Positions 28,388-29,989 of a stretch of DNA of 64,000 nt are shown here, in pieces; the first letter of the stretch is position 1; each line of letters starts with the position of its first letter. Where the stretch lies: the NCBI GenBank assembly GCA_003193925.1, contig PSPG01000008.1:64001-128000 (forward strand), given 5' to 3'. Made by a program: the position numbers and the translations under genes. The DNA comes from Candidatus Thalassarchaeum betae (lineage in GTDB: Archaea > Thermoplasmatota > Poseidoniia > Poseidoniales > Thalassarchaeaceae). The notes under the pieces were generated by a model, which was given only the letters and a program-made list of their open reading frames with translations, did not search any database and was not told the DNA's origin.

Positions 28388-29989
28388 TCAGTCGTGTGGC
28401 CCGACCATGTCCCCGGCCCTGACCCACTGAGTGAATTGCTCGTCGCTCAGAAGACCCAGTTCGAGTGCGCTCTCGCGCAGCGTGGTCCCCTTGGCATGGG
28501 CGTTCTTCGCAATCTTCGCGGCGTTGTCGTAGCCAATGTGCGGGTTGAGCGCGGTGACCAGCATCAGCGAGTTCTCCAAGTGCGCGGCGATCCTGTCCTC
28601 ATTGGCTTCCAGACCTACCACGCACTTGTCGGTGAACGAGCGGCAGGTGTCTGAGAGCAGGCGGACGCTGTGCAGGAAGTTGTGGATCATCATCGGCTTG
28701 TACACATTGAGCTCAAAATTGCCCTGACTGCCTCCGACCGAGATGGCGGTGTGGTTGCCCATCACCTGGCAGCACACCATCGTCATCGCCTCGGCCTGCG
28801 TTGGGTTGACCTTGCCCGGCATGATGCTCGAGCCCGGCTCGTTGGCCGGTAGTGAGAGTTCCCCGAAGCCGCAGCGTGGCCCCGAGCCGAGCCACCTGAC
28901 GTCGTTCGCGATCTTCATCAGCGAGGTCGCTAGGGTGTTCAGCGCCCCTGAGGCGGCCACCAGCGCATCGTGGGCGGCGAGCTGCGCGAACTTGTTCTCG
29001 GCGCTGACGAAAGCCAGTCCGGTCTTCTCGGCGATGTGGCCCGCGGCCGTGTCTGCGAACTCAGGGTGGGTGTTGAGGCCGGTGCCGACCGCGGTTCCCC
29101 CGAGCGCCAACTCGAGCAGGTCCCCCATAGCGCTCTCGATGCGGCTGATGTTGGCATCGAGCATTGAGACATAGCCACTGAACTCTTGCCCCAAGGTGAG
29201 TGGGACGGCGTCCATGAGGTGGGTCCTGCCGATCTTGACGATGCTCCTGAAGTCCCTCGCCTTGCTTGCCAGAGCGCTGCGCAAATGGCGTACTGCGGGC
29301 AATAATCGATGGCTGACCTCCTCTGCGGCAGCGATGTGCATGGCGGTCGGGAAGGTGTCGTTGCTTGACTGGGCGCGGTTGACGTGGTCGTTCGGGTGTA
29401 CCGGGGTCTTGCTGCCTACGGAGCCGCCTGAGATCTCGATCGCACGGTTGGCGATGACCTCGTTGGCGTTCATGTTGGTCTGGGTCCCCGAGCCCGTCTG
29501 CCAGACCCTGAGCGGGAAGTGCTGGTCCAAGGAGCCCGAGATGACCTCGTCGCAGGCTGAGGAGATCAGCGAGCCGATGTTGGAATCCATCTGGCCCAGT
29601 TCGACATTGGTCTTGGCCGCAGCCTGCTTGAGAACCCCAAAGGCGCGTATCACCGAACGCGGCATCGTGTCCTCGCCGATGTCGAAATTGAGCAGTGATC
29701 GTGCCGTCTGGGCCCCGTAGTACCTGTCTGCAGGGACCTCGACCTCCCCCATCGTGTCCTTTTCGACCCTGATTGCGTCTGGTTGGGCCCTCGCGCTGCG
29801 AGCTGCGGCCCTAGGCTCCTCAGAACGCTCATCCGCCTCCGAATCGAGGGATTCCTGTATCATTCTCGAGATGGTTGCAGAGCGTCCCTTCTCGCGTCCC
29901 TTGCCGACTCTCCTGTCGAGCCTCTTAGCGAGGTCCTCTGGTATGCTTATACTGACTATCCTGCGGTCTCCGGCACGGTGTTTGGCCAT
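28388..29989 (-). CDS. fumC: Class II fumarate hydratase with N-terminal ribbon-helix-helix extension
   Basis: '[14 protein letters not shown]', 'SSNDTFPT', '[10 protein letters not shown]', '[13 protein letters not shown]'; extra ~70 N-terminal residues. Confidence 0.95.

Follow-up and report, generated by a model that had tools for sequence, protein, structure and literature searches.

Does the fumarase of a marine archaeon carry a DNA-binding domain of its own, and, if so, which DNA might that domain bind? The question is raised by a gene of Candidatus Thalassarchaeum betae (Poseidoniales) that lies in a 64,000-nt stretch of assembly GCA_003193925.1 (contig PSPG01000008.1, positions 64,001-128,000), referred to here as the window. 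An original prediction, made from the letters of the DNA, read the gene product as a class II fumarase (FumC) fused to an N-terminal ribbon-helix-helix (RHH) domain and proposed that such an enzyme might link fumarate and malate flux to DNA binding. In public annotation, the protein is named "class II fumarate hydratase" only. The features discussed below are collected in Table 1.

Table 1. Features of the fusion gene and its upstream region, in window coordinates
Feature	Position	Strand	Basis
RHH-linker-FumC fusion gene, 533 residues plus stop codon	28388..29989	minus	Open reading frame; Pfam and NCBIfam domains
Residues 1-50, RHH domain	29840..29989	minus	RHH_1, conservation, dN/dS, AF2 model, structural neighbors
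Residues 51-73, variable Ser/Glu/Pro/Ala/Arg-rich linker	29771..29839	minus	Alignment, dN/dS, pLDDT
Residues 74-533, class II fumarate hydratase core (Lyase_1 and FumaraseC_C)	28391..29770	minus	TIGR00979, motifs, structure alignment
Cyclophilin-type peptidyl-prolyl isomerase, upstream of fumC	30080..30643	minus	Pfam Pro_isomerase, 161 bits
TTTATTAATAACCAATTAACG, A/T-rich candidate operator, TATA position (-32) to -12	30001..30021	minus	Genome pattern searches
TTTATTAATAA, TATA-like box	30011-30021	minus	-32 to -22 from ATG

Protein Architecture and Start Codon

The enzyme part is, by its sequence, an orthodox class II fumarase. Lyase_1 covers residues 81-411 (383.5 bits) and FumaraseC_C residues 477-529 (86.5 bits) in Pfam, and the NCBIfam model TIGR00979 (fumC_II) matches residues 74-530 at 777.1 bits, against a cut-off of 664.75. 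The signature motifs of class II fumarases are SSND, GRTHxxDA, and the SS-loop GSSxMPxKxN. In the fusion protein, SSND is found at residue 208, GRTHLMDA at 254, and an SS-loop of the GSSxMPxKxN type at 386. The alignment of residues 74-531 with solved fumarases runs from end to end, for instance with 6n1m_A and with residues 5-462 of E. coli FumC (1fuo_A). The 73 N-terminal residues are therefore truly extra, in agreement with the roughly 70 in-frame residues that had been predicted. A class I fumarase (PF05681) was not found in the source genome, which is 92% complete, and the fusion protein is, as read from that genome, the only detectable fumarase of the cell.

The N-terminal peptide that had been quoted and the Ala/Arg-rich linker behind it were found as described. 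Residues 1-50 comprise, in order, a basic, conserved N-terminal arm, the β-strand RIVSISIP, helix A, a GKGRxxGRS loop, and helix B. Pfam RHH_1 (PF01402, CopG family; gathering cut-off of 20.5 bits) matches residues 12-48 with 21.3 bits in the whole protein and with 23.9-24.2 bits when the N-terminus is scored alone.

The extended ATG was also examined as the start of translation. Only three ATG, GTG, or TTG codons, those of M1, M43, and M80, lie in frame within the first 95 codons. M43 falls inside helix B of the RHH domain, M80 falls inside the fumarase motif DTMG, and a stop codon is present in frame 7 codons upstream of M1. Together with the dN/dS of 0.033 given below, these features support M1 as the start, as had been proposed. 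The TATA-like box expected just upstream of this ATG is present as well, with TTTATTAATAA at -32 to -22.

Fold, Conservation, and Selection of the N-Terminal Domain

RHH domains are obligate dimers that insert a two-stranded sheet into the major groove of DNA in a sequence-specific manner. The N-termini of 32 of 35 orthologues match RHH_1 at E ≤ 0.01, and the alignment of the 35 shows 17 invariant columns in the extension. Invariant in this alignment are R10-I11-x-S13-x-S15 of the strand and the helix N-cap G35-R36-S37, which we take to be the DNA-contact signatures of RHH proteins. Median dN/dS values, calculated from 49-54 within-genus pairs with dS near 1, are 0.033 for the RHH domain, 0.040 for the enzyme, and 0.086 for the linker; between genera, the linker reaches 0.3-0.8. 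The RHH domain is under strong purifying selection, with a dN/dS as low as that of the enzyme. The linker has no conserved columns in the alignment and keeps its length, and the fumarase core begins 71-75 residues past M1 in every fused locus in which it was located.

The AF2 model of the N-terminus has a mean pLDDT of 74, with 81-88 over residues 11-50 and 46-64 in the linker. It consists of an extended N-terminal segment and helices at residues 18-28 and 36-56, with GRS as the N-cap. When 48,161 PDB chains were searched with this model, the best-ranked structural neighbors were almost all RHH proteins, including TacA1, CopA, KacA, omega, the RHH domain of PutA (2rbf_A), and NikR. Their Z-scores are low (4.0-4.5 for the best-ranked neighbors), which is to be expected of a domain that has 50 residues and was modeled as a monomer. 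A Foldseek search of the PDB with the monomer model returned no significant match, the top row being the omega repressor at E 7.4. Two copies of residues 1-55 co-predicted with an alignment scored 0.32, against a mark of 0.42, a value that weighs neither for nor against a dimer. The assignment of an RHH domain joined to FumC is borne out by profile, fold, conservation, and selection; the profile and model checks proposed for it gave an RHH_1 score above the cut-off and a strand-helix-helix structure.

Distribution and History of the Fusion

A survey of the architecture across Poseidoniales (Marine Group II), also proposed with the original prediction, shows that it is order-wide. The fused N-terminus occurs in 256 of 401 genomes and in 19 of 26 genera. 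Among the 150 matches listed, all but 6 sit in open frames of 422-598 residues, with about 530 being typical, and the 6 exceptions are contig-end fragments of 123-366 residues. All 120 protein clusters listed carry Lyase_1, and a precomputed RHH domain appears in none of the 120. Outside the order, other families of the phylum gave only 11 weak matches to the N-terminus. When 1.84 billion representatives were searched with a profile of the N-terminus, 48 matches were obtained, 41 of them strong, and no close stand-alone RHH protein was revealed. Of the 41 strong matches, the 9 inspected are all pieces of this fused gene, either truncated or chimeric; genuine stand-alone RHH proteins come no closer than E ~1e-4.

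In a tree of the FumC core, Poseidoniales form one clade (100/100), with fused forms on all deep branches and unfused forms nested among them. Parsimony on this tree requires 7-8 changes, of which at least 3-4 are forced by well-supported branches. The topology implies that the RHH domain was gained once, at the base of Poseidoniales, and then lost at least 3-4 times. In genera that lack the fusion, the genomes contain no RHH match at all (0 of 15 in g17, 0 of 11 in g19, and 0 of 2 in g2); the domain was lost there and did not split off. A domain lost by at least 3-4 lineages is therefore dispensable.

Neighborhood of the Gene

The isomerase gene upstream is separated from fumC by a 90-nt spacer, and its C-terminal coding sequence is also found upstream of fumC in several other loci. 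Downstream of fumC come 1 kb of non-coding repeats and then a PQQ-propeller gene in convergent orientation. Neither a toxin-like gene nor a conserved partner gene adjoins the fusion gene. An RHH antitoxin of a type II toxin-antitoxin pair was considered and rejected, as no co-oriented toxin gene is adjacent and the neighbors are the isomerase, the repeats, and the PQQ-propeller gene. An Rfam scan of positions 26500-30700 gave a single match, ilvH, which at 25.6 bits is below its cut-off of 55.1 and was ignored.

One RNA-library contig (X2, 159 nt, 0 mismatches) runs from the 3' end of the isomerase gene across the upstream element into fumC. Read-through transcription from the isomerase gene into fumC, or carry-over of DNA, is possible from this contig. 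Metatranscriptome contigs from runs of which a small share was sampled cover parts of the gene and show no start, strand, or expression; the RNA bins at 29855-29965 are without cover, which carries no weight.

The repeat array downstream (27613-28186) had been suggested to be linked functionally to the fusion. The array is purine-rich and lacks the A/T element described below, and its repeat core is found in 14 of 14 loci of the own genus and in none of the other loci among those compared. An array restricted to one genus does not match a fusion that is order-wide, and the suggested link was rejected.

A Conserved A/T-Rich Element Upstream of the Fused Genes

The sequence TTATTAATAA occurs once in the source genome (1.48 Mb, 61% G+C; exact and pattern search). 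Allowing at most 1 mismatch, the 17-nt pattern is found in 118 of the 401 genomes of the order and is single-copy in 116 of those. Of the comparable matches, 92 of 94 are on the strand of RHH-fumC, at a distance of 11-14 nt upstream of its ATG. A TTATTAA-type heptad is present at -27 to -31 from the ATG in 46 of 46 fused loci, these being the loci with enough upstream DNA, and is absent from 16 of 16 unfused loci scored within the order. The latter include that of G029, an unfused genome nested among fused relatives in the FumC-core tree. Two heptads, about 20 nt apart, form an inverted repeat of TTTAATAAC in genus g10.

The best-conserved 8 nt of the element, TTTATTAA, fall exactly at the TATA position expected for a leaderless transcript, and TTTATTAA may be no more than a strong core promoter. 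In the 1.48-Mb source genome it is present 3 times; the generic promoter box there is TTGAA-like, is located at about -30, and differs from the fumC element. Unfused genes that lack the element may be transcribed by read-through from the upstream isomerase gene. Among the genomes sampled, the extended 17-mer is found in 118, versus 256 with the fusion, and it is absent from all sampled genomes of g5, g16, g10, and g7, many of which are fused. The co-occurrence of fusion and element is drawn from related genomes, which are not independent samples, and one deletion removing both could also account for it.

Further perfect palindromes of the same heptad, TTAATAATTATTAA, turned up in the own genus, with two each in G000, G019, and G007 and one each in G009 and G017; in all, just 3 of 22 genera have them. 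These palindromes were rejected as targets of a wider regulon, since those of G000 are placed between the 3' ends of convergent genes and so few genera have any.

Proposed Mechanism

By analogy with PutA, RHH-FumC may well be a self-regulating "trigger enzyme" that acts on its own promoter. This proposal is supported indirectly by the conserved A/T element, of which genomes have about one copy, at a constant distance from the ATG of the fused gene. At the base of Poseidoniales, an RHH domain was joined to an ordinary FumC, with a flexible linker of about 23 residues between the two. In the FumC tetramer, the four N-terminal RHH chains would pair to give two RHH dimers, and these would bind the candidate element TTTATTAATAAC-YAATTAA, which is built from TTATTAA/TTAATAA heptads. 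The candidate site would cover the TATA box and 20 nt down to the leaderless-type start of the gene itself. The bound RHH domain could then block recruitment of TBP/TFB or of the polymerase, such that the enzyme would repress its own synthesis, as PutA does; repression is the presumed sign of the regulation. Fumarate or malate might also modulate the binding of DNA.

Alternative Explanations

The RHH domain might instead tether fumarase to DNA for a role other than autoregulation, either to supply fumarate or malate locally at chromatin or sites of DNA damage or to govern a wider regulon as a general transcription factor. The conserved basic arm of the domain and the one or two further TTAATAATTATTAA palindromes in the own genus are consistent with such a role. 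In addition, class II fumarases are reported to take part in the DNA damage response in B. subtilis, yeast, and humans, and the B. subtilis enzyme is reported to co-localize with DNA (PMC5711358, PMC6068284). We nevertheless consider tethering unlikely. The extended element occurs about once per genome and nearly always at the fumC promoter, which autoregulation fits better, whereas the extra palindromes of G000 are not at promoters, and 3 of 22 genera at most have such palindromes. It is quite improbable that the N-terminal domain has ceased to bind DNA and now serves as an oligomerization or docking module, linking tetramers or recruiting a partner, with the A/T element being a strong TATA box only. 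RHH domains, as obligate dimers, would add subunit contacts; many of the closest structural neighbors are antitoxins that also bind a protein partner; and the most conserved part of the element is at the expected TATA position. However, the presumed DNA-contact signatures are intact and invariant, no toxin-like or conserved partner gene is adjacent, and TTTATTAA, with its 3 occurrences in 1.48 Mb, is unlike the usual TTGAA-like box of the genome.

That the extension is an artefact of annotation or assembly, with translation starting downstream and the RHH-like stretch forming an untranslated leader, is hardly credible. The public name and the precomputed domains of the 120 clusters listed, in which RHH does not figure, would agree with it. 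Yet an open, conserved frame is seen in 256 genomes, which come from many assemblies, and a dN/dS of 0.033 at dS near 1 is that of a translated sequence under constraint. Moreover, no start codon lies between M43 and M80, M80 is inside the conserved fumarase core, and both an in-frame stop codon and a TATA-like box are found directly upstream of M1.

Comparison with Known Systems

PutA of E. coli, Salmonella, and Pseudomonas putida carries an N-terminal RHH domain on a metabolic enzyme and represses its own operon. It is a bacterial protein, and its switch is the association with the membrane that follows reduction of FAD. The complex of the PutA RHH domain with its operator (2rbf_A) matches the N-terminal model with Z 4.0 and rmsd 2.9 over 44 aligned residues. 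However, PutA has PRODH and P5CDH behind its RHH domain, whereas only Lyase_1 and FumaraseC_C follow here. RHH-FumC is also archaeal, shows no evident comparable switch, and has a candidate site that overlaps the TATA box. It is PutA-like in its working at most and is not a member of the PutA family.

NikR, a nickel-responsive repressor, is a tetramer that presents two RHH dimers, which is the geometry proposed for RHH-FumC. NikR RHH domains are the best sequence matches in the PDB (E 0.18), the NCBIfam NikR models give E 0.016-0.077, and identities in structural alignments are 26-30%. In contrast to NikR, the fusion protein lacks the C-terminal metal-binding (ACT-like) domain, and the tetramerizing body would be the enzyme. 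The NikR models cover no more than residues 12-61 and reach 13.3-15.2 bits, below their cut-offs of 83-175.

Within the fumarases, B. subtilis Fum-bc, yeast Fum1, and human FH belong to the same family and are reported to be functionally tied to DNA (PMC5711358, PMC6068284). These enzymes are not known to have a DNA-binding domain and act through metabolites or partner proteins, whereas here an RHH domain is covalently attached and has a candidate site at the gene's own promoter. A likeness in layout is found in the sister order of the same class (family f4), whose fumarase also has an N-terminal extension and whose promoters carry conserved dyads. In f4, 34 of 36 matches sit in frames of 535-572 residues, the other 2 being partial, and 9 of 9 loci read show an extension of 94-97 residues starting M..YTSIRVTKEV together with upstream ATGCAnnnTGCAT-type repeats. 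The f4 extension, however, has no detectable sequence relation to the RHH domain (hhalign probability 0.1) and no Pfam RHH match, its AF2 model is unusable (pLDDT 46.5), and the promoter dyads are unlike the Poseidoniales element. It is conceivable, if rather doubtful, that occupancy of the FumC active site by fumarate or malate alters how the two RHH dimers of the tetramer engage the heptads, that the state of the TCA cycle thereby directly sets transcription, and that the fusion of enzyme and regulator arose twice. If true, two origins would mean that selection for coupling fumarase to DNA is strong and general in these lineages.

Significance

A paper describing an RHH-fumarase fusion was not found in a full-text literature search. 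Among heterotrophs of the surface ocean, Marine Group II archaea rank with the most abundant. They have not been cultured, and their gene regulation is almost unstudied. If the autoregulatory proposal is true, RHH-FumC would be a rare archaeal trigger enzyme of the TCA cycle with a recognizable, one-per-genome target. Recombinant protein and a DNA of 40 bp would give access to the regulator and its operator in vitro, and culturing of the organism would not be required. The fusion is relevant, too, to the puzzling connection of class II fumarases with DNA transactions that is seen in bacteria, yeast, and humans.

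Architecture and Enzyme Identity

The fused gene is a single ORF in which a ribbon-helix-helix (RHH) domain and a linker precede a class II fumarase (FumC). By profile assignment, the protein is a full member of both the FumC and the RHH_1 families. TIGR00979, the NCBIfam equivalog for class II fumarate hydratase, matches residues 74–530 with 777 bits against a cut-off of 664.75, and the core motifs (SS-loop, SSND, and GRTHLMDA) are present. The core is collinear over its full length with solved fumarases, residue 74 pairing with residue 5 of 1fuo_A (E. coli FumC); residues 1–73 are therefore extra. 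No match to class I fumarase (PF05681) was found in the organism's own 92%-complete genome, and RHH-FumC appears to be the cell's sole fumarase.

Features of the fused fumC locus and related sites
Feature	Location	Strand	Remarks
RHH-FumC ORF	window 28388-29989	minus	533 aa, single ORF
RHH_1 (Pfam)	residues 12-48		21.3 bits in whole protein; 23.9-24.2 bits for N-terminus alone
Lyase_1 (Pfam)	residues 81-411
FumaraseC_C (Pfam)	residues 477-529
A/T-rich element TTTATTAATAACCAATTAACG	window 30001-30021		directly upstream of fused gene; -32 to -12 from ATG
Repeat array, core GAACCGGAGAGAACTGGACGCAAGGAAGGGGGAGGAAGGGGAAGGAAGCGGAG	window 27613-28186	+ (coordinates)	six copies of ~63-nt purine-rich unit; irregular spacing, 69-134 nt
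Adjacent ORFs of 447 and 293 aa	window 30471-32700	+	multiple TFIIB-type zinc ribbons, DUF5763, C-terminal CxxC...YCxxHQ motifs
Perfect A/T palindrome TTAATAATTATTAA	own genome (G000) C7:165890-165903		outside window; same heptad as fumC element
Perfect A/T palindrome TTAATAATTATTAA	G000 C18:8578-8591		outside window; same heptad as fumC element
Perfect A/T palindrome TTATTAATTATTAA	G000 C21:6650-6667		outside window; same heptad as fumC element
Sister-order (family f4) fumarase loci with extension	L069-L073, L075-L081		same class, different order

Translation and Fold of the N-Terminal Extension

The original prediction placed the translation start at the extended ATG. Within the first 95 codons, the in-frame ATG, GTG, or TTG codons are limited to M1, M43, and M80; M43 sits in RHH helix B and M80 in the fumarase DTMG motif, and an in-frame stop lies 7 codons 5' of M1. 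Among 13 same-genus orthologues (synonymous divergence ~1; 49–54 pairs per region), the median dN/dS is 0.033 for residues 1–50, 0.086 for the linker (residues 51–73), and 0.040 for the enzyme. Across 35 aligned orthologous N-termini drawn from many genera, 17 columns are invariant, all in residues 1–37. The linker has none and keeps its length, the core beginning 71–75 residues after M1. The low dN/dS, the invariant columns, and the sparse alternative starts bear out the extended start, and it is very improbable that an annotation artefact accounts for the extension.

The predicted RHH identity of this segment holds as well. The RHH_1 score exceeds the gathering score of 20.5, and 32 of the 35 orthologues match the family at E ≤ 0.01. 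An AlphaFold2 model built on the alignment (mean pLDDT 74; 81–88 over residues 11–50) has an extended N-terminal segment followed by helices at residues 18–28 and 36–56. Foldseek returned no significant match to this model in the PDB. Exhaustive structural alignment to 48,161 PDB chains placed almost only RHH proteins at the top of the ranking, including the antitoxins TacA1, CopA, KacA, and ParD, as well as omega repressor, ORF56, NikR (26–30% identity), AmrZ, and Arc. The operator-bound RHH domain of PutA (2rbf_A) aligned with Z 4.0 and rmsd 2.9 (44 aligned). Z values are ≤4.5 throughout, as expected because a 50-residue obligate-dimer fold was modeled as a monomer; weight therefore rests on the composition of the ranking, not on the scores. 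The invariant residues lie on the β-strand (R10, I11, S13, S15, and P17) and at the helix B cap (G35-R36-S37), positions that we take to be DNA-contacting in RHH proteins.

The RHH of RHH-FumC resembles that of NikR most closely, and NikR RHH domains are also its nearest solved relatives by sequence (E 0.18); the metal-binding domain of NikR is absent. Identity as a PutA was rejected, as neither a PRODH nor a P5CDH domain is present, and identity as an antitoxin was rejected, as no toxin gene lies beside fumC.

Distribution and History of the Fusion

A survey of the RHH and Lyase_1 architecture across the order Poseidoniales shows that the N-terminus is conserved, as the original prediction implied: its 72 residues are found in 256 of 401 sampled genomes and in 19 of 26 genera. 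Among the 150 matches listed, all but 6 lie in open frames of 422–598 aa, and the 6 are contig-end fragments of 123–366 aa. At E ≤ 0.01, the N-terminus matches 197 protein-database clusters. Each of the 120 clusters listed includes Lyase_1 and lacks a precomputed RHH domain; these entries are named "class II fumarate hydratase" and assigned to Candidatus Poseidoniales, Thalassarchaeaceae, or Thermoplasmatota. Beyond the order, 401 genomes sampled from the phylum yielded 11 weak matches (E 8e-6 to 8e-4): nine in frames of 58–172 aa, and one each in frames of 245 and 447 aa. When 1.84 billion representative proteins were searched with a profile, 48 matches appeared, 41 of them strong; all nine strong matches inspected are truncated or chimeric pieces of fused genes, and the closest stand-alone RHH proteins reach only ~E 1e-4. 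No description of an RHH-fumarase fusion was found in the available portions of the full-text literature.

The domain was found in no sampled genome of genera g17 (0/15), g19 (0/11), g2 (0/2), and g20 (0/3), and g7 (21/61), g8 (33/52), and g9 (1/28) are mixed. Unfused FumC proteins begin M-x-x-VRIE-x-DTMG, and no RHH remnant was seen in their genes. In a maximum-likelihood tree of 44 FumC cores (omitting near-duplicate own-genus loci, L032, loci with the N-terminus only, and repeat fetches), the order forms one clade (100/100). All deep branches of its three families hold fused forms, with unfused forms nested among them; the unfused locus of genome G029, for example, falls within a 100/97 clade of fused relatives. 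Parsimony gives 7–8 changes, at least 3–4 of them forced by well-supported branches. Most simply, the fusion would have arisen once, at the base of the order, and the domain would then have been lost cleanly and repeatedly; these events are losses rather than fissions because the genomes concerned have no domain match anywhere.

The sister family f4 also has extended fumarases: 34 of 36 matches lie in 535–572-aa frames, and the other two are partial. In all nine loci read, a conserved 94–97-residue extension starts M..YTSIRVTKEV and includes Cys, Pro, and Gly residues that do not vary; ~25–60 nt 5' of the start are paired dyads of the ATGCAnnnTGCAT type. This extension has no Pfam match and no sequence relation to the Poseidoniales RHH (hhalign probability 0.1), and its structure model (pLDDT 46.5) is unusable for fold.

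A Promoter Element of the Fused Genes

A TATA box had been proposed just upstream of the extended ATG. An A/T-rich element is indeed present at −32 to −12, but it is not the generic box of the genome. The generic signal consists of TTGAA-like words within a weak increase in A/T at −30 to −26, a position that fits leaderless transcripts. In the own genome (61% G+C, 1.48 Mb), TTATTAATAA occurs once and TTTATTAA three times. Among fused loci, 46 have 60 nt or more of upstream sequence, and every one carries a heptad (TTATTAA, TTAATAA, or TTATTAT) that begins 27–31 nt 5' of the ATG. Positions one to eight (TTTATTAA) hardly vary, and the TAAC-TAATTAA that follows is moderately conserved. Of the unfused loci of the order, 16 were scored, and none of them has the heptad between −45 and −8. 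This count excludes two fused loci; of four loci outside this scoring, three belong to the fused set, and all three have it.

Of the 401 sampled Poseidoniales genomes, 118 contain the 17-nt pattern TTATTAATAASYAATTA (≤1 mismatch), 116 of them with a single match. Of 120 matches, 94 could be compared with listed RHH start coordinates, and 92 of these sit on the same strand as the gene, 11–14 nt 5' of its ATG. No match turned up in sampled genomes of the fusion-free genera g2, g17, g19, g20, g22, and g25. The exceptions are one-mismatch matches in G248, from the entirely fusion-free g24, and in G119, which has no RHH match and belongs to the otherwise almost wholly unfused g9. Sampled g5, g7, g10, and g16 genomes likewise gave no match, although many of them have the fusion; the element thus varies among lineages in its extended half. 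The RHH is most divergent in g10, where the promoter carries TTTAATAAC and an inverted copy ~20 nt apart.

In G249, the 17-nt element (C1:39149-39165) and the RHH-fumC start downstream of it (39493) are 328 nt apart rather than 11–14 nt, which could reflect an insertion or a second site. RHH-less lineages each have their own conserved, G+C-richer upstream block: CGTACGAACGGTGAAGAAGTAC in g7 (L021, L023, L025, and L088), GGGAAAGGGACATGGA in g9 and g19 (L022, L086, L087, L083, and L090), and ATGCAAATTCATAGGATGTC in g8 (L028, L091, and L092). Loss of the RHH thus seems to have been followed by replacement of the promoter or leader.

The three palindromes in the own genome rank among its four longest all-A/T runs (14–19 nt), and all lie between 3' ends of convergent genes. 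The C7 and C18 palindromes also occur in close relatives (two sites each in G019 and G007; one each in G009 and G017); genus g18 (G100) has the same palindrome within the fumC promoter itself. The extra copies could resemble terminators or provide additional binding sites.

Neighboring Sequences

fumC and a PQQ-propeller gene converge, and the repeat array fills the 1-kb non-coding stretch that separates their 3' ends. A functional link to the fusion had been raised and is not borne out: the repeat core lies 3' of fumC in 14 of 14 own-genus loci and in no other locus compared, and the array is not coupled to the fusion because the latter is order-wide. A CRISPR-like array was rejected on spacing and unit length. 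The 447-aa ORF overlaps, on the opposite strand, the cyclophilin-type isomerase gene upstream of fumC, so its true start is probably further downstream.

Discussion

The RHH-FumC fusion is real, ancient, conserved, and unannotated, and it has a gene-specific promoter element. That its N-terminal domain, with invariant β-strand and helix-cap residues, serves as a protein–protein or oligomerization module and does not bind DNA seems improbable. It is unlikely, if less so, that the RHH tethers fumarase to DNA for another purpose or serves a wider regulon. Excerpted reports that class II fumarases act in the DNA damage response (PMC5711358, PMC6068284) and the additional heptad palindromes in the own genus favor such a role, but the palindromes of the own genome sit between convergent 3' ends.

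The invariant TTTATTAA may be a mere strong TATA box of an independent leaderless promoter, and element and domain could have been lost together through single deletions. An RNA-library contig runs across the intergenic region upstream of fumC and could be read-through from the isomerase gene.

We lean slightly toward RHH-FumC being a self-regulating trigger enzyme of the enzyme-repressor kind, a mode of working proposed by analogy with PutA. FumC is generally tetrameric, and the tetrameric body would carry four RHH chains on four flexible linkers, from which two dimers could form. These would bind DNA at a candidate target covering the TATA box plus the sequence between it and the start, the region over which archaeal repressors typically act. 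RHH-FumC may thus repress its own gene, with fumarate or malate affecting the binding.
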